Part shown: positions 500 to 64,000 of the stretch, in pieces
How positions within the stretch are numbered: the stretch's first letter is position 1
How the letters are laid out: every line of letters starts with the position of its first letter
From: Stegostoma tigrinum
Lineage: Eukaryota
DNA length: 64,000 nucleotides
Reading direction: 5' to 3'
NCBI RefSeq assembly: GCF_030684315.1
Contig: NC_081375.1
Span: 22,308,021-22,372,020 of the forward strand
Translations under genes and position numbers: made by a program
Notes under the pieces: generated by a model
Told to the model about the DNA's origin: nothing
Seen by the model: the letters and a program-made list of their open reading frames with translations, nothing else
Databases searched by the model: none

Positions 500-1350
500 A
501 GATCCAAAACACCAAATGTCTTTAACATTAAAATCTAACAACATGAAACGAGAAATGAGAGTGCTTACTCTCTTCAAAGTAAATGTTGAAACAGTTGTTG
601 GTAAATGGAATTGAAGGCTGTGGTGAAAGGCGGTGCTGACAGAGTCAGGCGCCGAACTACGAAACAAATTGGAGCGCCTTAATGACTTCCTCCTGTTGTT
701 CTCTGTAGTCCCAGTACTGCCGAAGTTGACAAAAGTCAGATGTCACAATACACCACCAAGTTATAGTCCAACAGGTTTATTTGAAATCACAAGCTTCCTA
801 AGCGCGGCTCCTTCATCACCTATTTCAGGCCGCAATAGAAAATGGAAAAGGCTGGTGACACTCAGACGCTCGGGCATCAGCTGAAGAGCTGGTCAGTCAC
901 ACTCCGACGTTCGGACACTCTCATAGGGGACACTGTTTGAAACGAGAACCGACTACGAATTCAGTGAATGCGTCTACCTCAAGCCGTTTCCAGACCTGAC
1001 AACCAGAAATGGCCAAACTGCCGGGAAACCGAATCACATGACAGTACCGGCGTCACACGCTCGGCCGGTCCACATCCACCCAGCCAAGCGGAGAGGTGTC
1101 AGCTCCTTCACCTCGCACCTCCCACTATTAACATCCCGCGCCCACCACACTGAAACGCACCCTCCCTCAAAGTGGTACAGTCCGACAACGGACGGTGTAG
1201 TTGTCGAGAAATAGTAGGAACTGCCGATGATGGGTTGTTATCGTTTCTTAGCAACAGAGAACATGGCGGACGGAGGGAGGTAATTTCATCACTTTGCTCA
1301 TTAATCCACAATACTTTTCATATTTCTAAAATGTCTACTTTTCTAAATGC
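500..1350 (+). repeat. Segmental duplicate of the promoter module at about 51290-52085
   Basis: 595-1192 matches 51371-51953 except 2 substitutions and a 15-nt indel; flanks on both sides align but are diverged. Confidence 0.95.
1243..1285 (+). pseudogene. Orphan copy of the X-box and first coding exon (ATG GCG GAC GGA GGG AG|gtaatt) of the divergent gene
   Basis: Homologous to 51979-52019; no copy of the downstream exons seen before the GAA 3' end. Confidence 0.6.
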
Positions 1351-6212: not shown

Positions 6213-6612
6213 GTTTTGAGAAGATTTGTAGCTCAGGTTGAGGTTCTGGATGTGAGTTTGCTCGCTGAGCTGGAAGGTTAGTTTTCAGACGTTTCGTCAC
6301 CATTCTAGGTAACATCATCAGTGAGCCGCCGACGAAGCGCTGGTGTTATGTCCCGCTTTCTATTTATCTGGTTAGGTTTCCTTGGGTTGGTGATGTCATT
6401 TCCTGTTCTTTTTCTCTGGCTCCAAGTCAATCTACCATCCCCTGAGAAAAAGAACAGGAAATGACATCACCAACCCAAGGAAACCTAACAGATAAATAGA
6501 AAGCGGGACATAACACCAGCGCTTCGTTGGAGGCTCACTGATGATGTTACCTAGAATGGTGACGAAACGTCTGAAAACTAACCTTCCAGCTCAGCGAGCA
6601 AACTCACATCCA
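6213..6612. mobile_element. Fold-back Penelope-type mini-element (second family) with ~170-bp arms and 12-bp TSD ggattctatcat
   Basis: Arms 6246-6416 and 6444-6613; TSD at 6201-6212 and 6613-6624. Confidence 0.85.
6535..6574 (+). ncRNA. Minimal type I hammerhead ribozyme motif (mirror copy at 6285-6324 on the - strand)
   Basis: tca-CTGATGA-t-gttacc(tagaat)ggtgac-GAAA-cgtc-tga: core boxes, 6-bp stem II, 3-bp stem I, palindromic ACGT stem III. Confidence 0.7.
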
Positions 6613-6719
6613 GGATTCTATCATAATTAACCAAGTCAGTTTTCCAAGTCAAAAGGGGTTTATTTAGGCTGCACTAGAAAAAGGCAAAAGTGGCTCCGAA
6701 TGAAAGAACAAGGGCTGTC

Positions 6720-7894: not shown

Positions 7895-43785
<35,891 letters not shown>

Positions 43786-45452
43786 GTCACAATGTGGTGA
43801 TAACGTGACAAAAATATAATTGATCTTGAAGCTTGGTTCTAGTACCTAAAATGAGAGAGAAAGAAAGAAAAAAAGTTCAAGACTTACAGCAGTTTTGTGC
43901 TACCAATAATGCACACATTTATCTTAAATATATTTTAATAGGGCACTTATAAATTACAGGAAAGGTAGTACTAAGGCTCGCGAAGTCAATGGATAAGGGC
44001 AATACTGCACAATTCAAGATGACAAAGCATTAGCTTGTTGATTTTTATATAAAGAGGAGTCTATTTAAATCATTCAATCCAGACTGCATGTGCAAATCTC
44101 TGATATTGTGGCTGGTTAAATAGTGTTGTTATTAAACTTCAAAATATCAGACTCAACATGAACCTTATTCTATGGTATATGGCGCATCTAGCGCATTATC
44201 ATAGCAATAAGTCAGTATTAAAACTCGAAGCAGTGAGGCATTTGCATCAGTAAGCAGATAAAGGCTGAAAAGGTAATAACAGCATGACAGATGGGCTATA
44301 TTGTTTTCCCAATCATCAATAAATCTGAATTCACAGCTGAAATTACAACGAAAACAAAGACTAAAGTGCTACAGCCAAAACTAAATGCTATAAACTTGTA
44401 CTGAAGCATGGTGAATATGCTACCTCTCTCTTACAAACAAAAAAGAAAAAGGGCTTACAAAAAGCCTAGGACAGCTATCATTTAAAACGAAAGTGTTATC
44501 AAGTGCTGAAAGGCAGTTCCACTCTAGAAAAGAAATCCTGGAATAAAGTACAGACGTCAACAGCAAGAGAAAAATGTTTCCAAACTAAAGAAGCCTTACT
44601 GTTACCCAGACAGCCTATTCTACTATCTCCTTTTTCTGAAGTGGCATGAAAAGATTTTGGCCTTACTTTTACAAAGGAAAAGTGATTTTTTTTAACTAAA
44701 ATGAACAAGCCTGTGACCTTCAAAGGGGCAGCAACAATAAGGACCGAGATTTGGCAAAACAACCCCACAAATTGTGCTAAATTAAAATAAATTTTTTTCC
44801 CCTCACTTGAACTGGCAACCCGTTGACATATTCCAGGAACAGCCTGACAAATTTCTCACATTATAAAATCAAAATAAAGTTTGTATCATTTCAGGTTTAA
44901 ATTCTTGTCCTACCACCAAAAACTGGTTAAATAATCGACCAATTCATAGGTAAATCTTGACTTAAAGGAACAAAACATGATTTCAACGGAGCTAAGCCAG
45001 CTGAAATGCTTATGGTTTCTACACACATGAAAACCTCCAGAAATGCATTTCTAGACAAACTTGAATATACCATGGATGCGCTACTGAGTGGAGAATGCAC
45101 ATTCAAAGACGTTGGAGCAGATCAGCAGCATCTGAAAGAACCTTACTTTGGCACAATTATTGCAGCAGTCACCATATGCAGTGGAATGTTCAAATCTTTT
45201 AAAAGTTGTGGCATTTTTCATCTACAAAAACAACATGTTTCTTCAGATTCCCCATCTGCCAGAACATATTTTAATAACACAGACCTTTTCAAAAAAAGAC
45301 CCAGGGCACCTAAAAGTAGAGGCAAAATAGAAAATGTATAGAAGATGGTTAAGTAAAAAATAAAAAGGGCAACTGACGAAAGGCATCGCTGTTTCTTTTG
45401 CTGTTCGTTCCTGTACATTGAATTTTAAACAAAATCGTTTCTTTTTGAACTC

Positions 45453-48908: not shown

Positions 48909-49131
48909 GATGATGGGAACTGCAGATGCTGGAGAATCCAAGACAACAAAATGTGAGGCTGGATGAACACAGCAGGCCAAGCAGCATCTCAGGAGCACAA
49001 AAGCTGACGTTTCGGGCCTAGACCCTTCATCAGAGGTCTCTGATGAAGGGTCTAGGCCCGAAACGTCAGCTTTTGTGCTCCTGAGATGCTGCTTGGCCTG
49101 CTGTGTTCATCCAGCCTCTCATTTTGTTGTC
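48909..49131 (-). mobile_element. Near-perfect fold-back Penelope mini-element with two back-to-back hammerhead motifs, 13-bp TSD tctggttcacaaa, nested in a SINE (48760-49325)
   Basis: 95-bp arms 48941-49035 and 49038-49132 (one mismatch seen); TSD at 48896-48908 and 49132-49144. Confidence 0.9.
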
Positions 49132-49974
49132 TCTGGTTCACAAATGTCCTTTTGGGAAAGAAACTGCCATGCTTACCCTGTCTGGCCTAAATGTGACTCC
49201 TGACCCACATCAATGTGGTTGACTCTCAACTGCCCTCTGAAATGGCCTAGCAAACCATTCGGTTCAGAGACAAGTAGGGACAGGTAATAACTGCTGGCCA
49301 GCAAACGACGCCTACGCCCCATATGTGAACAAAAACAAAAGATCGCGGGGAAGTGGTAGCAAAGTGGTAATGTCAACGGGCTAATACTGCAGAACTCAGC
49401 TCATGTTCTCAGGACGTAAAAATTCAAATCTGAACCTAAAGATTTGGAATTAAAAGCTTGTGATTGTCACAAAAAAAAACTGAGTCACGCGCATCATTCA
49501 GGGTCTGACTTCCACACCCAAAATGTGATTTACTCTTGAAGTGACCTCTGGACAAATCAGCAGATAGGCAATAAGTGCTGGCCGAGCTAGTGATGCCCAC
49601 ATCTTGCCAACAGACCAGAAGCAGGCAGATGGGACTAGTTTAGCTTGAGATTATGGTCAGCATGGACTGGTTGGGCTGAATGGTCTGTTTCTGTGCTGTA
49701 TGACCATGTCGTAGATCCAAAGCATTAACTGTATGCATAGAGACAATACTTATCTACAACCTTATCTGCAACTCGGTTCCTAGTCTCAAAGCAAAATGTG
49801 ACATTGTATCACAGCATAGATTTTCCAGACCTTTTTGAGCGATTTCCATGAAACAGTAATATGCGACATCCCAGAACTAAAGGTACCTAACTCACCTCAG
49901 TTGCTAATAGTTAGCATAGTGTTTACACTAAAAAAGCTGACAATAACAAACTAACATCAGTAAGCAGAGAATCT

Positions 49975-51051
49975 AGGCATGTAAGATATAGCAGTTTGGA
50001 TTGGAAATTGGCTTGATGAAAGAAGACAGAGGGTGGTAGTTGATGGGAAATATTCATCCTGGAGACCAGTTACGAGTGGTGTACCGCAAGGGTTGGTGTT
50101 GGGTCCACTGCTGTTTGTCATTTTTATAAGTGACTTGGTTGAGGGCGTAGAAGAATGGGTTAGTAAATTTGCAGACGACACGAAGGTCGGTGGAGTTGTG
50201 GATAGTGACGAAGGATGCGGTAGGTTGCAGAGAGACAGATAAGCTGCAGAGCTGGCAAATGGAGTTTAATGCAGACAAGTGTGAGGTGATGCACTTTGAT
50301 AGGAGTAACCGGAAGGCAAAGTACAGGGCTAACGGTAAGATTCTTAGTAGTGTAGATGAGCAGAGAGATCTCGATGTCCATGTACACAGATCCTTGAAAG
50401 TTGCCACCCAGGTTGACAGGGCTGTTAAGAAGGCATACAGTGTTTTAGCTTTTATTAATAGACGAATCGAGTTCCGGAACCAAGAGGTTATGGTGAAGCT
50501 GTACAAAACTCTGGTGCGGCTGCACTTGGAGTATTGTGTACAGTTCTGGTCACCACATTATAAGAAGGATGTGGAAGCTTTGGAAAGGGTGCAGAGGAGA
50601 TTTACTAGGATGTTGCCTGGTATGGAGGGAAGGTCTTACGAGGAAAGGCTGATGGACTTGAGGCCGTTTTCATTAGAGAGAAGGTGGTTGAGAGGTGACT
50701 TAATTGAAACATATAAAATAATCAGAGGGTTAGATAGGGTGGATAGGGAGAGCCTTTTTCCTAGGATGGTGACGGCGAGCACGAGTAGGCATAGCTTTAA
50801 ATTGAGGGGGTGAAAGATATAGGACAGATGTCAGAGGTAGTTTCTTTACTCAGAGAGTAGTAAGGTAATGGAACGCTTTGCCCGCAACGGTCGTAGATTC
50901 GCCAACTTTAGGTACATTTAAGTCATCATTGGATAAGCACATGGAATAGTGTAGGTTAGATGGGTTTCAGATCGGTATGACAGGTCAGCACAACATCGAG
51001 GGCCGAAGGGCCTGTACTGTGCTGTAATGTTCTATGTTCTATGTTCTATGT
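49975..51051 (+). mobile_element. CR1 LINE, 5'-truncated, frameshifted RT
   Basis: [32 protein letters not shown]; tail (ttctatg)n. Confidence 0.93.
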
Positions 51052-51370
51052 AAGTCAGCGTCTTGTAGCTGTGTAAGTAGCTGACGTTAGTCAACTTGAA
51101 GAAATCTAACTCAACAAAAAGAGGCTTGAGAGTATTTTAACATAGAAAAACACAAAGCAGGTCACTATTTGTGGTTGGTTGTAACTCATATGCATAGGTA
51201 CCTTTTCACTTCTCTCCAACTTAATGTCCTTCAAGATCTCTTCTGTTGACGACAGAAAGTACCTTCCAATGCTTTGGCAGATGCAATAAACCAAAATGCT
51301 TTCAACATTGAAGTATGAAGCAAGAAATGAAAGTACTTACTCTTCCAAAACCAAATGCCGAAATAGATTC

Positions 51371-51996
51371 TTGTTGGTAAATGGAATTGAAGGCTGTGGT
51401 GAAAGGCGGTGCTGACAGAGTCAGGCGCCGAACTACGAAACAAATTGGAGCGCCTTAATGACTTCCTCCTGTTGTTCTCTGTAGTCCCGGTACTGCCGAA
51501 GTTGACAAAAGTCAGATGTCACAATACACCACCAGGTTATAGTCCAACAGGTTTATTTGAAATCACAAGCTTCCTAAGCGCGGCTCCTTCATCACCTATT
51601 TCAGGCCGCAATAGAAAATGGAAAAGGCTGGTGACACTCAGACGCTCGGGCATCAGCTGAAGAGCTGGTCAGTCACACTCCGACGTTCGGACACTGTTTG
51701 AAACGAGAACCGACTACGAATTCAGTGAATGCGTCTACCTCAAGCCGTTTCCAGACCTGACAACCAGAAATGGCCAAACTGCCGGGAAACCGAATCACAT
51801 GACAGTACCGGCGTCACACGCTCGGCCGGTCCACATCCACCCAGCCAAGCGGAGAGGTGTCAGCTCCTTCACCTCGCACCTCCCACTATTAACATCCCGC
51901 GCCCACCACACTGAAACGCACCCTCCCTCAAAGTGGTACAGTCCGACAACGGAGTGGGGCTGCCGGGTTGTTGTTATCGTTTCTTAGCAACAGAGA
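51371..51996. promoter_or_regulatory. CpG-rich putative bidirectional promoter for GAA and the divergent gene; probably contains the GAA non-coding exon 1 (candidate minus-strand donor after 51873)
   Basis: Local CpG enrichment in a CpG-depleted background, 7.5 kb upstream of the GAA exon 2 acceptor and directly before the ATG exon of a + strand gene. Human GAA exon 1 is non-coding. Confidence 0.65.
51979..51991 (+). promoter_or_regulatory. RFX X-box motif GTTTCTTAGCAAC
   Basis: Matches the X-box consensus typical of ciliary gene promoters; 5 nt upstream of the ATG at 51997. Confidence 0.65.
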
Positions 51997-54900
51997 ATGG
52001 CGGACGGAGAGAGGTAACTCCACCACTTTGCTCATTAAGCCACAATACTTTTCATTTTTTAAAAATGCCTGTTTTTCGAAATGTTTCAGTAGGTATTTGG
52101 CAAAATAGCGAAGACCATGCTTCCTAAAGATATCTTTAGCAGGAAAGAATGTGCGAAATTTATATTTGAGGTCGGAAGAGATGGGAGGGCTAAGAATACT
52201 AATAGATGAAGAACAGCTGAAGTGGAATTATTGGACTTAACACTTATTTCCTTAGTTAGATTTGATAGAAATATGAATAAATTGGGATTGATTTTTAGTG
52301 TGCCACCTGTTTGTGAAATTTCCTGGTTGTCATTGACATTTGCTTACTCTTCTGGAAAAGTATGATTTTTATTTGAGGATATAAAAATTATGAGCCTTCC
52401 ATAAAAGATGGCCAGCCCAAATGTCAATTTTCCTGTAAGATGACATGTTAAAAATATGCCCAGTTTGTTGGTGTCAATTTGATAAAAACAATGTTCATCA
52501 AAATGCATGAAGACCTTATTATGCAGAGTAATTTGTTGGACAATGGAAAGCTTTGTAATAGTTCGTATCAAAAACAAAGTTGGTGGAAAACTTCAGCAGG
52601 TCTGGCAGCATCTGTGATGGAAAAACAGAGTTTCAGGTCCGGTGATGTGATAAGTTTGTATATCATTGGAATGAAATTAATAGAATGGAATCATTGGCAA
52701 ATGAGTAAACAGGGTTAGATGATGCATGAAGGAAGGAATTATCAAAGTGGAGCAAAATGACATAGATAGCAGTTTCAAAATAATGGAAAATGAACCAAAG
52801 CCTAAGCCTTCAACACTTGGGTGATCTGAGAGGAATCATTATAGCAAAATATGTTTATGTTTAAAGTGCTGTCTTAAAAAGTAATAACAAACCAGAGAAT
52901 TATTTGCATTATACAGTACAGACCATTTGTTTTATCTGGTTATTTAGTTTCTTTGTTTCATTTTTCATAGTCCCCCACCTGAGACTGTTCAAGCCTTGCA
53001 TGAGGATGAAGATGCACCAGAGAATGCCCAGATGGTAAATACAATATTTGGCAGTTTGGTTTTTATTATACATCTGGTAGCAGTTGTGCCTTGAATTGTA
53101 TAGCAAACTAATCACTTCAGTAGACTAGTTTTGTTGTTGTAAAATTTCTCCAAGCATTTGAGAGTTAATATTTGTTTTGAAGAATATTTCATCCCCATAA
53201 GTGGTGGTTTTATTGACTACCAACTCAACCCTTGGCCCATTGCACGTTATGGATGCTATCAGCAGGAGAGATTTGTACTCAGTCACCTCCTGTAACAGCT
53301 TGGTCCAGGATATTCCTCACTCTACCATACAGTCAAGTAAGGCAATTGATCCTGCTTCAGTAAAGAATGTAGGAAATCAAGCCAGGAGCACCAAAAGGCA
53401 TATATTAAGGTGCCAATACAGTTAAGCTACAATGCAGGATTACATGCATGCTAAACAGTAGAACCATAATGTCATAGAGAATGTGACACACAACCAGCGG
53501 ATAAGATCAAGCTGTGTAGTTTTACCACATCCAGTCATAAATAACGGTAAACAATTCAACAATTAACTGGAAGACGAGTCTTCAAGAACATTCCCATTGT
53601 CAATGATGGGAAAGCCCAACATGTTAGGTCCCAAACATTACATGCATGTTATCAGACAACATGATATATTTCACTTGTTTTCAAAAATCGTTTGGATGCA
53701 TTGGATACTGTAATGTCCATCCAACAATAGGACAGAATGTAACTATCACACTTGATGTTCAATGACATTTCCATCACTAAATCTCCCATTAATAGCATCT
53801 TAGGTTCCCTACAGTGTGGAAACAGGCCATTCGGCCCAACAAGTCCACACCGCCCCTCGAAGCATTCTACTCAAACCCAACCCTCTATAATCCACACACC
53901 CCTGAACACTATGGGCAATTTAGCATGGCCAGTCCACTGAGCCTGCACATCTTTGGACTGTGGGAGGAAACCTGAGCACCTGGAGAAAACCCACGCAGAC
54001 ACAATGCTGGCAACAACTGGCAGTCGGCACAACATTGTGGGCTGAAGGGCCTGTTCTGTGCTGTACTGTTCTATGTTCTATGTTCTAGACACGGGAACTC
54101 CACAAAGACAGTCCCTGAGGCTGGAATCGAACCCGGGTCCCCGGCGCTGTGAGGCTGTATTGCTAACCACTGAGCCACCATGCTGCCCTATCGTAGGGAC
54201 TACCTTTGACCAGGAACTGAACTGGACCAGGCATGCAAATGTTTGGCTAGAAGATCAGAAAAGAAATTCTTCAATGAGCAAGTCACCTCCTGTCTACTGA
54301 ACATCTGTCCACTATCAATCAGCATGTGATAGGATACTCTCCGTTTGTTTGAATGCATGCAGCTTCTAACAGCACTCAAGAAGCTTGACACCATCCAAGA
54401 CAAAGCATTCTGATGAAGAGTCAATGAACTTGAAACACTAATTCAGCTTTCTCCCCATGGATGCAGCCAGACCTGCTAAGTTTCATCAGCAATTTTAGTT
54501 CTTTGTTTTAATAAAGCAACTTGCTTGATTGGCACTTTACACCATCTTCAACATACACTCATTTCACCACTGACGCACAGTTTAAGTAGTGTATACCGTC
54601 TACAAAGTGCACTTGGTAGATCACCAAGGCTGCTTAGACATCAGCTTCCAAACACATGACTGTTATCATCTTAAAGAACAGCGGCAACAGATACATGGGT
54701 AGTCTACCACTGCATCTTCTTCTCTAAGCCACACAGTATCCTGACTTAGAGCTATATCATCATTCTGTCATTGTTTGCTGGGTTATAATCCTGGAACTCC
54801 TTTTATAACAGCACTGAGTGTTTTTATTACCCAAGGACTGCAGCAAATCAAGGAGGCAGCTCACTACTGCCTTCTAGAGTTTTGTTTGGGATTGGGCAAT

Positions 54901-57900
54901 TAATGTTGGCTGAACAAACACCACTCACATCCCATGAATGTGTTTTTAAAACCAGATCCATAACCAAATTGATTTCTGTGCCTGGATTGCCTGATAACAC
55001 AGGCCATCCCCTTCTCAGATTGCTCGATATTGTGGTAGCCCAAACCCAGTTGGCTGTCTAATGTGCTGAGGTTCTACCTACAAACCACCAAATACTTATC
55101 AATAAAGCCAGGCATTTTAAATGTGGTCACTAGCCTCATGGTTTTCTACTCTGTACTTCAGCTCTCCCTTCTTTCATTAAGCTGTTCAATATGTACCCCC
55201 TGGAATTTTTGATTTGAACACTTTCCCTGCTACTGCTTGCTGTTCAGTTATTTTTTCATCTCTGTGATATTTTTGGGATGTTTTCTTAGGTTAAGAGTAC
55301 ATCAAAAGTGCATGTTTGAAAAAGAGAGCCTTATGGTTTGAAGAGTCTCAGGTTGGGGCTATGAAAAATGAAACAAAGGAATTAAATAATCATGTAAAAT
55401 AAATGTTCAATACTGAATAATGCAAATAATTTACTGGTTTATTATTACTTTTTAAAAGAGAGCACTTCAAACATTAAACTTATGTTTAAATGTAAACCTT
55501 AAAATAAAGGCATATATTGTGTGGCATCTAATAGTCGTTACATTTTCTTGCAAATCAGATAGAAACTACTGAAGATGTTGCTGAGGATAGAGATCAGGCA
55601 CCCACTTCAGAACATCCCATATCACCAGATATTGTTGGAAATGTTCCAGAATATACACAAGAAAATACGGTAATTGACTTTTTTTTAAAAAAAACCATAT
55701 TTCATATATTTTGTTTTTATGTTATTTTAATTTTTAGGCTGATTTCTCATACACCAGGAGATATATCATTGAACAAAGTCGTTGAATTTTGCTTTCCTTT
55801 TTGGAATTTAACCTCAGGCAATGTGGAGAGAAAACTGGTCAAATCTGCTTTTTTTTATTTATTTGGTCATGAAATTGTTGGCAAGCAAGCATAACACTTA
55901 TTACCCTCCCTAATTGATCATGTTACGGTGGTGGTGAGCTGCCATCTGAAATCATAAAGGTGTGGAACTACCCACAGTGATCTGAGGGAGGGAGTTCCAG
56001 ATTTTCAGTGAAGATATCCTGCCAAGTCCGTTTGTGTCTGTGGTGCATAAGTAAGTGAATATGTGAACTCCATGAATGTTAGATCATCAATAATGGCAGA
56101 GCCAGGACATCTGCAAGTCAACACTGAAATGTTTGCATCCATCTTGGACTTTTTATAAAGGCCACATCTAACTGACTGAGCAAAACTCTAATTAATGGGA
56201 ATCAGGGAAGACTCACTGCTGGTTGAAGTCAAACCTAGTACATGGTGGTTGTGGTTTTTGGATGCCAGTCATCTCTGCTGCAGAACATCTCTGCAGGAGT
56301 TCTTCAGGGAAGTGTCCTCATCCTAACTATCTTTAGCATCCTACCCAGAACCAACCACCACTACCTCCCCCCCTGCCCACTCCTATCCCTGTAATCCTGC
56401 ATTTCCCATTGCTAATCCACCTAGTCTGCATATCCCTGGACAGTAAGGTTGATTGGCATTGCTAAATTACCCAAACCTGCACATCTTTAGACCTTCTCCT
56501 GTTCCAATATTCCTCTTCCTTTAAGATTTTAACCTCTTTTGCATTTTTCCTTCCTTGGCTGATAACTAGAGTCAGAGTTTTAATCCTTTTGATTCCAAGC
56601 CTGAAATGGTTTCCTTTAACTCTGATATCTTGCAATGTCTTTTGATTTCTTCAAACTACTTCTTGAATTTTGTCTTTAGTCACCGTAGTTCTTACTGGTT
56701 GATAGTTAATTTTTCACTTTGTAATGTTTTGTTATCTTTTGTCTTGTTCAAGTTTCGATGAAAGTGGAACTTTTTTAGCAAAGGGAAGGCCTATAGTAAA
56801 ATAAATCTACCATTAAATTTTGCTGTAGTTGTTTCTGCCACAACACTATGAAAAGCGATTCTTGCAAGCACTCAAATGCTTAAACTGAGAGCTGCTTTTA
56901 AGTTCGGCACCCCTTTCTGTCTCTGAATAATGCATTTTTCCAAGTTGGTGTCTTAAAACTATCTTCTTTATAATTACAATGGACTTTATTTTCAGTGTTG
57001 CCAAAATTTCTATAGATTGTGTCAGTGGCAACGTGGTATGTCAGTCTGTTTTACCATTAGTGTAATTCCTGCTGCCCTCCAATGGAAAGATATTTGGAAC
57101 TGTAATGCCTCCATCTGCTCAGGAGCTGCCAGAACTGATGAGGCAATTAAACATTCAGTACAGAAGGAACTCTGCTCCATCAGATTGCATCACTTTGGCC
57201 AGCTGTTAAGTGTTTGCTTGACTTCCTGAGAGCAAGCAATGGCACCTGTCTCATGTCATCATGGCTGTAGAAAATTAAGCAACAACCACATCTGATAATC
57301 ACCAACACCTTGTAAAGAAAGTATTATGTGTGGATTATGAATTCTCAGCTTGTTTTTCCACTGTTATTTAAAATCTTTACCCTTATTTTGTGCCCCTCCC
57401 CCACCCTCCAACATATCCCCTTTGCAAACAAATTTTGTTTTTTGTCTCTTTTTGATTCTTCTGTTTCTGAGACTTTCAGATGCTGGCATACATTACTGGG
57501 TAATTTTTTTATTTGTTTGGGCAACCTTGGAATAATCCTCTGACAATAATTTTCCTTTCCACACAAATCAGGGAGAAGCTGAGATAGCTGACCAAGGAGA
57601 TTTGCCTCTTGCTTCAGAACCTACTACATTTCCAGAAGTAGGTGGAAATGTCAGGGATAAAAAAAGTCTTAATTTTTAGAATGTTTAATATTTTATTGTT
57701 ATGTGGAATGTAATTCAGGAAATGTTATGCAGTTTGAATGGAAGCAGAATATTACAATATTTTGATAGTCTAATTGAACAAACAAACCAGTGGCAAATCG
57801 ATTTCAGTGTAGGCAAACCTGAGATCATCCACTTCAACTTGAAAATAAATATACTTTCTAAATCGTGAAAATTGGAAAAGGTGGAGTTGTAAAGAGGTTC

Positions 57901-60277
57901 GTGGGGTCATGTGCAAAGATTTTTAAAGTGGCTTGAATAGAGAAGGAAAATAATCAAAAGCCAAGTGGGATGCTTCTGTTCTAGAAAACTATGGTTAGAG
58001 TACAGTCAACTGGATTCTTCTTATCCGTGGGAATATGTACCTCCCACAGATAACAAGAAAAACTGCCAAAATGAAGTGCCGTATTTACTGCAAAGGACCA
58101 TGTGATTCTTCAGGCAGTCAATGGAGAAAAGAAAGTCAAGCCTGGCTGACCTCGTGAATACATGAGTCTATAGGTAGCAAATCCACGTTTAGCAGGGTGT
58201 GAGTGTGTTGTGTTCAGTTGCAGACACACATTTGCTATTTCTGTTGGCCATGAAGGATGTGTGCTGTAGTTTTTCCAAAATAATACCTGGACTCCAAAAC
58301 TTCAGAGAAAAACGCTATGTACCCTGACATTCATCAAAATTTCCTGAATATTTAGGGGAGCAAACAGAACAGAACTATGTCCACTGGCAAGTCTGGAACT
58401 AAAGGTCAAAATTTCAAGTCAGATCTTTCAGGAATGAAATTAAGAAAAAATGCCGCACTTGAGGACTGGTAGAAATTTAAAACTCTCTTTCTTAAATGGT
58501 AATGTTACATCAGTTGTTAATTTTAAATGTAAAATTTATAGTTTTTGTGAAATTGGTGCAAAGAAGTTGATTTATTTGAGTTCACTCAAATTATTGAGTT
58601 AGATTGCCATTCAGCTGTGATCTCACTGAAAGGTGGTGAAATGGGCCTGCAAGGCTAAATGACCCATCAATCAATGTTCCTTATGTATACAGATGAAAAT
58701 TTTAAAAAGGTTTTGACCATCCTCTGTGACCTCAATAGCAATATTGGGTGTAATGGTAAATCAAAGAAAGCATAGGCTGGAGGTCGATTAGCACCACATC
58801 CACAAGCATTCATTCCCTCTACCACTGAAGCTCAGTAGCAGCATTCTGTACTATCTACAAGATGCACTGTAGAAATTCACCAAAGATCCTTAGACAACAC
58901 CTTCTAAGCCCATGACCGCTTCCATCTAGATGAACAAGAGCAACAGATACATGGGAACACCACCTCAAGATCCCCACCAAGCAGTCACCATCCTTATTTG
59001 GGAATATATTTCATTTCACATCCTTCATTGTTGCTAGGTCAAAATCCCAGAATTCCCTCTCTAAGTGCGTTGTGGGTCAACCTACAGCATGTGGATTGCA
59101 GTGGCTCAGCACCACCACCTTCTCAAGGGCAATGAGGGAGAGGGAATAAATGCTGACCAGCCAGAGATACTCACATCCCACGATGAGTATAATCATATGA
59201 GGTGAATCATAACTGGGCAGAGATAATTCATCCCTGTTCCCTTGGTGTGGAGATGATTACATAAGTTACAAAACTAGACCAAATTTCTATCCCTCCATTT
59301 TAAAAAAAAGCTCATGTCCCAAACTCACCATTTTCACAACTATTTCTTTAATTTATAAGTGCTTTGTGATATGGCACGGTGTACATTTTCATCATGTCTT
59401 CATCATACATTTCAATACATGCCTCTGTATCCTGATAATGTCGGCTGACAATTAGAAATGGAACTTCAGTGGTTTTGATCCCAAACCTGAAATGGTCTTG
59501 CTAAATTTAGTGCATTATTGTTTCCCACATCTTTCATTTGAATTCTTAAAACCTCCCTTTTGAATTTTGCCTTAGTCGTCAAACCTAATCAACACAGTAG
59601 GCCAGGCAGCATCAGAGGAGTAGGAGAGTTGGCGTTTTAGGCCTAGACCCATCTTCAGTGGGTAACTGGGTAAGAGAAAGAGGAAAGAGCAGTGGGGCTG
59701 GGAGAGGTAGGTGGGATGGCAGTAGGGGTAGTGGTGATTGGTCAGTGGGAAGGATGGGGCAGAAGGAATTAGACAGGTAGGGTCAGGTGCATCCACCTAT
59801 CGCCATCCCATCTACCTAGCCCTAGCCCCACCCCTCTTCCCTCTATTTATTTCCCGGATTCCTGCTCCCTACCCAGTTCTGATGAAGTGTCTAGGCCTGA
59901 AACGTTGACTCTCCCACTCCTCTGATGTATCTCCACTGTCTCCAGCATCTGCATTTCATGTTATCTCATCATACCGAATGCTGTTTGATCTCCAGTTTTT
60001 TTTGTAGTTTGTAAAATCTTTCATGACTTTTTTGTTCAAGATGTTATGAAAGTAGAACTTAGTTGAAAATGAAAGTCTCATTGCAACCAAAAAAAAATAC
60101 AGGTTTAAGGTATTACTTGTCAGGGCAACTCTAGATTAATCATTTGACAGTTGTCTGCATTTTTATGGAAATCAGGGAGAAACTGATGTGATGGAGCAAG
60201 GAGATAAGACACCCTCTTCGGAACCTTCCAAATCACTGGAACTAATTGAAGACACATGGGAACCAGAAACAAATATG
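51997..60277 (+). CDS. 5' part of a divergent gene with an acidic low-complexity N-terminus (candidate CCDC40-like ciliary gene). Exons 51997-52013, 52971-53034, 55559-55669, 57572-57637 (less sure), 60176-60277. Probably continues beyond the window.
   Basis: Phase-compatible GT-AG exons give MADGES-PPPETVQALHEDEDAPENAQM-IETTEDVAEDRDQAPTSEHPISPDIVGNVPEYTQENT-GEAEIADQGDLPLASEPTTFPE-GETDVMEQGDKTPSSEPSKSLELIEDTWEPETNM. Identity is inferred only from the X-box, the acidic N-terminus and the known CCDC40-GAA adjacency in mammals. Confidence 0.6.
53800..54190 (-). mobile_element. HE1-like SINE with a CR1 tail fragment (about 54020-54087) inserted
   Basis: SINE head at 54120-54190; insert ends in (ttctatg)n. 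Confidence 0.7.
55335..55485 (-). repeat. Inverted duplicate of 52845-52995 (acceptor region of exon 2 of the divergent gene)
   Basis: agtctcaggttggggctatgaaaaatgaaacaaag...taatgcaaataatt..ctggttt is the reverse complement of the exon 2 3' splice region. Confidence 0.85.
59590..59967 (+). mobile_element. Older fold-back Penelope-derived element with degenerate hammerhead motif
   Basis: Purine-rich arm followed by a pyrimidine-rich arm; ctgatgaagtgtctaggcctgaaacgtt near 59879-59906. Confidence 0.65.
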
Positions 60278-60723
60278 GTAAATGCATTTTTCAGTGACTT
60301 TGCATATTTTACAATTCACATGATAATCTCAAATATTTAATATTGGAATATTTTTGTCTTCCTATCCTCTATGGCCCACTTGCTTCCAAGGTTGATTGCA
60401 ATTTGATGATACCAGCAAAGTCGCCTGAGGCTATTATGCAGTAGTAGGCAATCTGTGATTGAATTCATGGCAATTGGTGTAGAAGAGTGACTAGTTGAAT
60501 ACGATTCCCACTTTTCATCATAATGCAGTGCATTCTACTGAAAAATGTACATACTTAAATTTTAGCTGAGCATGGAACCATGTTCAAGCTTGAGTACTTC
60601 CTTCCTTACTCTCTGCCACAATCCCTATTTCCAGCCTAGGAATCATTTTGCAGCCTGATACTTATACATCCAGAATGATCACTTAGCAAAGGTAAAGTGT
60701 TGCTGTTATTTTTAGAACTTTAT

Positions 60724-62035
60724 CCCATAAGACCATAAGACATAGGAGTGGAAGTAAGGCCATTCGGCCCATCAAGTCCACTCCGCCATTTAAATCATGG
60801 CTGATGGGCATTTCAACACCACTTCCCTGCACTCTCCCCGTAGTTCTTGATTCCTTTTGAGATCAAGAATTTGTTGATCTCTGCCTTGAAGGCATCCAAC
60901 GTCCCGGCCTCCACTGCACTCTGTGGCAATGAATTCCACAAGCACACCACTCTCTGGCTGAAGAAATGTTGTCTCATTTCAGTTTTTAATTTACCCCCTC
61001 TAATTTTAAGGCTGTGCCCATGGGTCCTAGTCTCCCTGCCTAATGGAAACAGCTTCCTAGTGTCCACCCCTTCTAAACCATACATTATCTTGTAAGTTTC
61101 TGTTAGATCTCCCCTCAACCTTCTAAACTCAAATGAGTACAATCCCAGGATCCTTAGCCATTCATCATACGTTAAACCTACCATTCCAGGGATCATCCGT
61201 GTGAATCTCCGCTGGACACGCTCCAGGGCTAGTATGTCCTTCCTGAGGTGTGGGGCCCAAAATTGGACACAGTATTCTAAATGGGGCCTAACTAGAGCTT
61301 TATAAAGCCTCAGAAGCACATCGCTGCTTTTATATTCCAACCCTCTTGAGATAAATGACAATATTACATTCGCTTTCTTAATTACGGACTCTACCTGCAA
61401 GTTAACCTTTAGAGAATCCTGGACCAACACTCCCAGATCCCTTTGCACTTCTGATTTGCGAATTTTCTCACCATTTAGAAAATAGTCCATGCCTGTATTC
61501 TTTTTTCCAAAGTGCAAAACCTCACATTTACTCACATTGAATTTCATCAGCCATTTCCTGGACCACTCTCCTAAACTGTCTAAATCTTTCTGCAGCTTTC
61601 CCACCTCCCCAGTACTACCTGCCTGTCCACCTTTCTTCGTATCATCGGCGAACTTCGCCAGAATGCCCCCAGTCCCTTCATCCAGATCATTAATATATAA
61701 GGTGAACAGCTGTGGCCCCAACACTGAACCCTGCAGGACACCACTCGTCACCGGTTGCCATTCCGAAAAAGAGCCTTTTGTCTCAACTCTCTGCCTTCTG
61801 TCAGACAGCCAATCCTCAATCCAAGCCAGTAGCTCGCCTCGAACACCATGGGTCCTCACCTTGCTCAGCAGCCACCCGTGAGGCACTGTATCAAAGGCCT
61901 TTTGGAAGTCTAGATAGATAACATCTACTGGGTTTCCCTGGTCTAACGTACTTGTTACCTCTTCAAAGAATTCTACCAGGTTTGTCAGGCACGACCTCCC
62001 CTTACTAAAACCATGCTGACTTGTTTTATTCTGAC
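60724..62035 (-). mobile_element. CR1 LINE, 5'-truncated, open RT ORF (60813-62078)
   Basis: QHGFSKGRSCLTNL, YLDFQKAFD, SGVLQGSVLGP, KFADDTK, RPHLEYCVQFW; short cttatg-type tail repeats. Confidence 0.95.
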
Positions 62036-64000
62036 CCTGCACTTCCAGGAATTTACCATCCCAACAGAGTTCAGTCAAAATACAGGGAAAATTATTGGAA
62101 CTTATTGTTTTTGTGTTCAGATAAGCATAGTCCAGACCTTGAGGTATTTCTTCAAAGAGTATTTATTTATAATTCATACGTGATTCTCTTGCAGCAGACA
62201 TCTCTGCCTCAAGTTCTCTAGTTCCAACCTTCCAGCAGAGTCTCCCTCACATGACTCTGATGTCAACTCAGAGTGGCATCTGCAAATTCCTTAATTGCTA
62301 TCTCCACACTTATTGCATTAAAGAATCAAAAGAGTTTCCATTTCTTCAATAACTTTAAATTGCAAGTTAGATTTATTTCTGTCAGTCGAACATTTACAAT
62401 GGCCTCCATAGGGATTTATTGTGATATTGAATTGTACACTGATTGCAGATTAGAATGTGAATACACCACGGCATTGTACCATAGAATGGTATTTTGAATT
62501 TTTTTTAACAGAAAGTGTTTTCAGGGAAATAGTGAAGCACCCCTGCAGCTTCCTGGCCTTCTTCATTTCTAAAATCTGTTAATGGGATATGGACATTGCT
62601 GGCTAATTCAGCATTTTAAAAAAATCTTGCCATGGTCAATTGATTGTTATTGACTTTTCTTCCTAATGGCATTGTGGATCTACCTAAAGCACATGGACTG
62701 CAGTGGTTAAGAAGGCAGCTCACCACCACCTTCTCAAGGGCAACTGGAGATGGGCAATAAATGCTGGCTAGCTAGTGATGCCCTCATTTTCGTGTCCCCC
62801 ACCTCCAATCCTCCACCAGCAAAGAATTGATCTGCCTCTTCCTTTTCCCACTGCCACTCTCTACTGATCCCAGGATTACATCCCTGTTCTGAATCCACCT
62901 TAACAACCTCCAACTTCCCCACCACAGCACAAACCAACTGAGTTACCCCCATCCATCCGGTTCCCTTCAACCCCACAAATCCCCCACTCCACCCCCTTGC
63001 CCTCCTGCAATGTTAACCCCTTAAACACTTGCAAATCTACTCCAACTCCAATTTACCTTTGACACTTAATCTTCTCTCAACATATCAAAGTGCTTTCAGG
63101 ATCTTTATACCTTGTAATATAATAGCTAAGTGTCAAACAGGGGCATGGTTTCAACATCAATTCACTCAGCTATGTAGGCTCCTGACTTGGATTAAACTGC
63201 TGCAGCTGGGAGAGTCCCTGACATTTGCACAGAGAACTCCTTTTGTTTTGTCTAATCAGAGTCAGAAATCAGATTTTCAACTCTAATTGGAAGATCTGGG
63301 ACTGTCTCATAGACTAGAAAGGTTTGGCTCAGGAATCTCATTTTCAGAAAGGTCAAGCACTGCTTAATGTTAATGTTGTTTACTTTCTGACATGAGAGAA
63401 AATTGTCATACAAAATAGCACAGAGAAACCAAAGAGTTTCACAGTTGCAACAAGCCAACAATTGTGGGTTATTAACTAGCATGGTATCTAAAGTAAAGCA
63501 ACAAAACTCTGTTGTACTTTTATACAACTCAAGAAGCAGTTCTTGAAGAGCCAGCGGAGGAAGTGCAAAGTCCACTTCACCAGAATTGGTTTAAGGTACA
63601 GATTGTTTAAAATGTTAAATATAAATATATTTATCAATGTTGTTCTATAGACAGTTGTTGTAATTTGTAACCTGTAACATTTAATAATCCAAGGAAAAAG
63701 CTGCAGTGCCTGCTCGTGACAGCTGCATAATGCCTGTGGATGGAATCTTGTTGTGGTAACAAGAATTGCATCTGCTGGCTTAAGAGCCAGGGACAGAACC
63801 CACTTTGCCTTTTCTGATAAGGCCTGCCAAACCATGTGCTAATCATGCTTTGACAAGTCTACTGTGGGCCTTCAACTGAAATCAAGTTCCCATGACCATC
63901 AAGAACTGTTGGAAGATCTCAGCAGCTCTTGCAGTCTACAGCATTATGGAGTAGGTTGTGGCTGCTGCAGAAAGTACATCTCTTCCCATGAGTCCCAGGA

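Follow-up and report, generated by a model that had tools for sequence, protein, structure and literature searches.

Near-identical predicted CpG-island promoters of old tandem GAA genes in the zebra shark, probably kept alike by repeated non-allelic conversion

Recurrent, lineage-specific gene conversion that includes promoters is already documented, as excerpts of two reports describe it for HBB/HBD (PMC4390247) and for SIGLEC11/16 (PMC5701461). In mammals, conversion from HBB to HBD took place between old tandem paralogs and independently in separate lineages, and the HBD genes of galago, cat and microbat acquired a beta-like promoter; the tracts described are nested and differ in age, and those quoted extend from the 5' flank into exons (PMC4390247). 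In primates, conversion from SIGLEC16 to SIGLEC11 occurred per lineage and included upstream sequence. It covered ligand-binding exons, was infrequent, with the last events about 1-8 million years ago, and was tied by the authors to a change in expression (PMC5701461, in the part used here). In a third system, PRDM9-independent recombination at promoters and CpG islands, the quoted part concerns allelic recombination (PMC5519329).

Here we describe a pair of segments of about 590 bases in zebra shark (Stegostoma tigrinum) DNA; the whole stretch analyzed, 64,000 nucleotides in length, is referred to as the window. The two segments are real, near-identical copies of a predicted CpG-island promoter, and very probably they have been kept alike by repeated non-allelic conversion between old tandem GAA genes. 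The locus resembles the globin case in its old tandem paralogs, its independent conversions in separate lineages and its nested tracts of different ages, and it resembles the SIGLEC case in that conversion occurred per lineage and included upstream sequence. In contrast to the quoted globin tracts, which reach into exons, the GAA tract leaves about 7.5 kb between its end and the first coding exon of GAA. A distance of 50.8 kb separates its partners, and the segment, rich in CpG, is shared head-to-head with an unrelated gene. Unlike the SIGLEC genes, the GAA genes carry little conversion signal in their coding exons. PRDM9-independent recombination would put breaks into a promoter as rich in CpG as this one; the recombination described for it is allelic. 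What differs from the described cases is thus the restriction of the tract to non-coding DNA, the age and distance of the partners, and a predicted promoter shared with CCDC40.

A self-BLAST of the window yielded a single match, of 496-1349 with 51275-52083 on the same strand, and no third match to the core was present within the 64-kb window. Outside 496-1356, the only similarities found between the two neighbourhoods were matches read as common repeats. The near-identical pair claimed in an earlier note on this DNA was confirmed by self-BLAST and alignment: 595-1192 and 51371-51953, 50.8 kb apart, are identical at 581 of 583 aligned bases (97.16% over 598 columns including a 15-nt gap). The differences are two substitutions, A/G at 713 and A/G at 759, and the gap at 913-927, which is bordered by the 7-nt direct repeat GGACACT; no templated source for the 8 inserted bases was found in the window. 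The old, diverged homologous flanks that the note had described were also recovered. In the left flank (496-594), 70 of 91 aligned pairs are identical and gaps are numerous, and in the right flank (1233-1350) 103 of 116 pairs are identical, giving a profile of 77%, 99.7% and 89% for left flank, core and right flank. At the divergence of the right flank, the chance of two or fewer substitutions in 582 sites is 2.5e-27. A bounded, near-identical tract within diverged homologous flanks is what concerted evolution leaves. CpG islands are commonly defined by a GC content >0.5, a CpG observed/expected ratio >0.6 and a length >200 bases; the core, with a GC content of 0.52, a ratio of 0.83 (0.28 for the window) and 598 bases, has these sequence properties, and it contains motifs that we take to be of promoter type. 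A 24-base motif scanned against metagenome contigs gave 0 matches. The features of the two copies are:

595-1192, unstranded: core copy A, CpG-rich and homogenised, putative promoter of a second GAA paralog left of the window
51371-51953, unstranded: core copy B, CpG-rich, between GAA (minus) and CCDC40 (plus), predicted bidirectional promoter
496-594, unstranded: left diverged flank of copy A, homologous to 51275-51370, with a candidate minus-strand splice donor at 568
51275-51370, unstranded: left diverged flank of copy B, with a candidate GAA exon-1 donor (AGA/GTAAGT) at 51340, minus strand
about 732-825 (51508-51601 in copy B), unstranded: high-copy repeat fragment in both cores, placed by summed contig depth, limits approximate
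913-927, unstranded: 15-nt indel with 7-nt direct repeat borders, long form in copy A of the present assembly only
1193-1232, unstranded: copy A-specific segment with a repeat fragment, right tract end in the zebra shark
1233-1350, plus: right flank of copy A, with an X-box-like motif at 1243 and an orphan CCDC40 exon-1 stub (ATG 1263, donor 1280)
51970-52085, plus: right flank of copy B, with an X-box-like motif at 51979 and the true first coding exon of CCDC40 (ATG 51997, donor 52014)

Two genes of the window adjoin copy B:

7898-43845, minus: GAA paralog 1 (lysosomal alpha-glucosidase), 19 coding exons, from Pfam and the match to XP_048411059.1
51997-60280, plus: first five coding exons of CCDC40, which extends further, from the match to Stegostoma XP_048410737.1

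A Pfam scan, which covered 150 of the 162 long open frames, assigned GH31 and Trefoil domains to minus-strand exons. The exons between 43785 and 7898 give an exact match to 952 of the 953 residues of Stegostoma tigrinum XP_048411059.1, the one unmatched residue falling at an exon junction, and the GAA gene of the window is therefore the zebra shark gene. Right of copy B, five plus-strand exons match residues 1-121 of XP_048410737.1 exactly; the ciliary gene expected beside GAA is thus CCDC40. GAA and CCDC40 are arranged head-to-head with copy B between them, and the bamboo shark CCDC40 model starts within the right end of the core. Judged from sequence, copy B is predicted to be a bidirectional CpG-island promoter of GAA and CCDC40. 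The idea of a duplicated GAA/ciliary-gene promoter held for the promoter but not for CCDC40 as a gene: copy A retains only an orphan first-exon stub and the X-box-like motif, and no later CCDC40 exons were found near it.

The N-terminus of bamboo shark CCDC40 follows the B-type junction (16 of 22 residues). Because it reads through this junction, the derived state is the repeat-bearing segment 1193-1232, part of which matches repeats at 1457 and 36537 over 19 nt; this segment is likely to be a barrier to conversion in the zebra shark. A donor matrix built from 15 imperfectly cut GAA introns returned many candidates, the best of which, on the minus strand at 51340 and 568, lie just outside the core in the left flanks; the earlier note had placed the non-coding exon 1 of GAA within the core. 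By eye, the N-terminal extensions of shark GAA isoforms showed no visible match to the minus-strand frames of the core. Some smaller changes were seen at the gene starts. Whale and epaulette sharks have the first ATG of GAA paralog 1 at a site that reads ACG in the zebra shark (about 43804-43806, minus strand), and the zebra shark protein begins 7 residues later than theirs. The N-terminus of CCDC40 (55559-60280) consists of similar short acidic exons, the number of which varies by isoform and species. The orphan copy A retains, at 1261-1262, two bases before the CCDC40 ATG that are also present in bamboo sharks and that the functional copy B (51997) has lost.

An old tandem duplication with a second GAA gene to the left had been proposed as well, and database proteins support it. 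Two GAA proteins each exist in zebra, whale, epaulette and two bamboo sharks, with neighbouring accession numbers and contigs of equal size, and the zebra shark paralogs are 79.9% identical. An older bamboo shark gene model of 1742 aa fuses both: its N-terminal part corresponds to paralog 1 (99.9% over 753 residues) and its C-terminal part to paralog 2 (99.8% over 960 residues). This order places paralog 2 downstream of paralog 1 and hence left of the window, with copy A presumably upstream of paralog 2. The paralog clades span bamboo, epaulette, zebra and whale sharks with support of 100/100, and an AU test rejected grouping of the two Stegostoma proteins (p-AU 1e-6). In the comparison of the zebra and epaulette shark pairs, 81 columns group by paralog versus 1 column that groups by species, which gives little sign of conversion in the coding exons. 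The N-terminal exon is the most diverged part, with 30-41% identity in the first 120 alignment columns.

By these protein sequences the GAA duplication is older than the split of bamboo and zebra sharks, and the paralogs are thus older than the species compared. The carpet shark families other than those of whale and zebra sharks separated before the Cretaceous-Paleogene boundary, according to the portion of the report used (PMC8529718), which sets a minimum age for the duplication. GAA pairs were also found in Heterodontus, Mustelus, Mobula, Hemitrygon, Hypanus, Leucoraja and Amblyraja; the batoid, galeomorph and Heterodontus pairs group by lineage, in a tree with open forks, and may or may not go back to one duplication. 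The two Heterodontus proteins (P0013 and P0021) are 92% identical and group together, which reflects either a more recent duplication in this lineage or conversion of the coding region. A single GAA of the family was found for Scyliorhinus, Heptranchias, Cetorhinus and Carcharodon (P0005, P0026, P0020, P0024, P0027). This may be a limit of the search or a loss, as crossover between the cores would delete one gene cleanly. A search of titles and abstract openings, which left most subscription papers outside, found no literature on a shark GAA duplication or on the GAA/CCDC40 promoter.

A related species, organism B, was represented by a single run (X11) with contig depths of 2-8; positions 914-955 were uncovered, and 734-830 formed a repeat tangle. 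Its copy A flanks are orthologous to those of the window, with 22 of 212 and 16 of 221 bases differing. Two contigs carry the same G at 609 and both lack base 611, and they then merge into a single contig over 613-733, which has 7 differences and 2 gaps relative to the window. On the other side, contig 972-1301 splits into two contigs, both starting at 1272. The first (depth 3.7) follows copy A as far as 1389; the second (depth 2.3) follows it to 1349 and then departs, at the point where the window's own copies diverge. We read the two as copies A and B of organism B. The stretch 1272-1301, with three A/B differences in the window, is shared by both copies in organism B. The identity between its copies is high, with possible merging of SNP bubbles in the contigs.

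The collapsed regions 613-733 and 972-1301 of organism B differ from the window by about 6-10%, the same as the flanks. In the core, the difference between the species (7/121) exceeds that between the paralogs of the window (2/582; p 1e-4), so that the tract is more alike within than between species, as judged for the second species from the contig topology of one run. Homogenisation has been separate in each lineage, with different ends, at about 613-1301 in organism B. Species-specific pairs with their own ends point to recurrent conversion rather than to a single event or to ultraconservation. Of the recent gene conversion that had been postulated for the core, the conversion therefore stands, but not the notion of one recent event, as the pair of organism B has other boundaries. 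The paralog difference amounts to 0.039 of the species difference. For whale and zebra sharks, a dS of 0.06-0.11 over about 50 million years is given in the excerpt consulted (PMC13100897); if organism B is at this distance, the last homogenisation would date to within roughly the past 2 million years.

The pattern fits gene conversion and double crossover alike. In the explanation that we favor, an ancient duplication would have carried along with GAA both the promoter that it shares head-to-head with CCDC40 and part of CCDC40 exon 1 as a stub; the duplicated unit ends on the right near 1350/52085. The GAA introns would then have lost detectable homology and the proteins would have drifted to 80% identity, and the promoter may have been the sole long non-coding stretch where constraint held similarity adequate for a repair template. 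Each conversion, with its template 50.8 kb away, would restore the identity that permits the next one. The tract ends coincide with homology breaks, namely the zebra shark indels at 594 and the repeat insertion at 1193-1232, and likewise the breaks at about 612 and 1302 in organism B. A likely side effect, judged from the sequence, would be a common core-promoter input to both GAA genes; the earlier note had raised co-regulation of the paralogs as a possibility.

The locus offers clean vertebrate concerted evolution confined to non-coding upstream DNA in two species with different tract ends, between paralogs that predate the Cretaceous-Paleogene boundary. It also offers one place to separate three causes: passive maintenance of homology, selection for co-expression and promoter-directed breaks. 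A promoter change selected for CCDC40 could be transferred to the lysosomal gene GAA, and reads, methylation calls and ATAC peaks are not uniquely mappable at the two promoters. A much broader proposal, which we regard as quite improbable, is that, in slowly evolving shark genomes, very old tandem paralogs have their CpG-island promoters locked together by promoter-directed recombination, over tens to hundreds of millions of years in which their proteins diverge. If true, it would provide a standing route to co-regulation of old tandem paralogs, and the same perfect repeat would also account for sporadic losses of a GAA copy in certain lineages.

Two other explanations would add to repeated conversion rather than replace it. 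The first is that conversions are widespread and that selection retains the promoter conversions, which match expression of the two GAA enzymes, while purging coding-exon conversions. In line with such selection would be a tract that in two species is rich in CpG and free of coding sequence, a protein divergence that peaks in the N-terminal exon, and the retention of GAA protein pairs across many sharks and rays. However, the repeat fragment within the tract and the between-species change of about 6% fit passive copying, and loss of intron homology alone accounts for the restriction to the promoter; we therefore consider a role of selection possible, but on the unlikely side. The second is that meiotic breaks aimed at CpG-island promoters concentrate conversion there, a contribution to which we assign a similarly small likelihood. 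Species without functional PRDM9 recombine at transcription start sites and CpG islands, and the quoted part of the same report predicts the SSXRD domain of whale shark only weakly and lists none for Callorhinchus (PMC5519329). It nevertheless counts the whale shark domain set, tentatively, as present (PMC5519329). The 7-nt microhomology at the indel would also agree with breaks, but the idea rests on a single locus.

Explanations that dispense with recurrent exchange fare far worse. Extreme purifying selection could hold both copies unchanged without exchange, and the core does contain motifs resembling those of promoters. It is contradicted by the divergence between the species, which in the core is about that of the flanks (7/121 versus 38/433, p 0.35), and 400-1450 matched no Rfam family up to E 1. 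With neither near-identity across species nor an Rfam match, the core qualifies neither as an ultraconserved element nor as a structured RNA, and purifying selection is highly improbable as the sole cause. A single ancestral homogenisation is just as hard to maintain. The right flank, at 89%, is near the between-species level, and an older, wider tract is plausible there; for the core, however, one ancestral event predicts 6-10% between the copies, whereas those of the window differ by 0.3%, and the copies of organism B share their differences from the window.

Recurrent conversion presupposes that both copies are genuine, and read-derived contigs from 4 of the 21 listed runs were placed on 200-1440 of the window. 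Runs X2 and X4 are same-species DNA runs from separate samples, one of which may be the source of the assembly. The X2 contigs, which contain no other letters than the window save the 15-nt gap, cover 200-624 (depth 16.8), 595-758 (37.8), 774-1192 (39.8) and 1163-1440 (21.8), and their 30-base overlaps place branch points exactly at the core ends, 595 and 1192. The core depth is about twice the flank depth (37.8-39.8 versus 16.8-21.8), but contig depth is not a measure of copy number, and most of the weight is given to the branch topology. In X4, of low depth, contigs cover 200-624, 595-712 and 774-1440. Both junctions of copy A were bridged in the two samples by contigs without other letters, and both copies are thus present in the genome. 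The doubt that the core pair might stem from polishing or collapse is dispelled by the branching at 595 and 1192 with double depth between. The suspicion of a dispersed high-copy repeat can be dismissed for the segment as a whole and holds for about 90 bases: summed contig depth reached 8e4 to 1.5e6 in bins 746-829 of three large runs and 550-2400 in bin 1208-1249, while the rest of the core is low-copy at about twofold depth. The repeat-derived parts of the locus are limited to about 732-825 and 1195-1232.

The long allele of the 15-nt indel was absent from the contigs of both same-species runs (2 of 2). As X2 and X4 leave out the 15 bases, the long form is either private to the present assembly or an error, and the two copies do not appear to be fixed for different forms of the indel. 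At 713, the X4 contig breaks and the X2 contig continues, which hints that this substitution is not fixed either; contig assembly can merge isolated SNP bubbles, and this weakens the reading. An assembly or polishing artefact, or a dispersed repeat, is the least credible source of the pair, as the unseen long allele and the 90 high-copy bases stand against copy A junctions bridged in two samples, one of them possibly the source of the assembly, and a low-copy remainder of the core at double depth, so that it is contradicted for the core and only the 15-nt indel may yet prove an error or a private allele. In run X5 (38.6 million letters), one contig lies over 605-783 and another, with 19 unplaced letters, over 778-854; no minus-strand GT was found near the contig edge at 605, and the junction at 854 allows either reading, so this run was kept out of the evidence on expression and exon 1.

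The window contains further repeats. At 39490-42387, a GAA intron harbors an element with 623-nt inverted arms (99% complementary) and 39-nt tandem units, which we take to resemble a young Penelope-type insertion or an inverted pair; within it, 39793-40773 on the minus strand has a weak GIY-YIG match (E 0.0009). Intronic LINE-like repeats with reverse-transcriptase frames are located at 60816-62162 (minus) and 49985-50239 (plus). Two palindromes, at 6246-6613 (368 bases, 94% self-complementary) and 48941-49132 (192 bases, 98%), are apparently repeat-derived.
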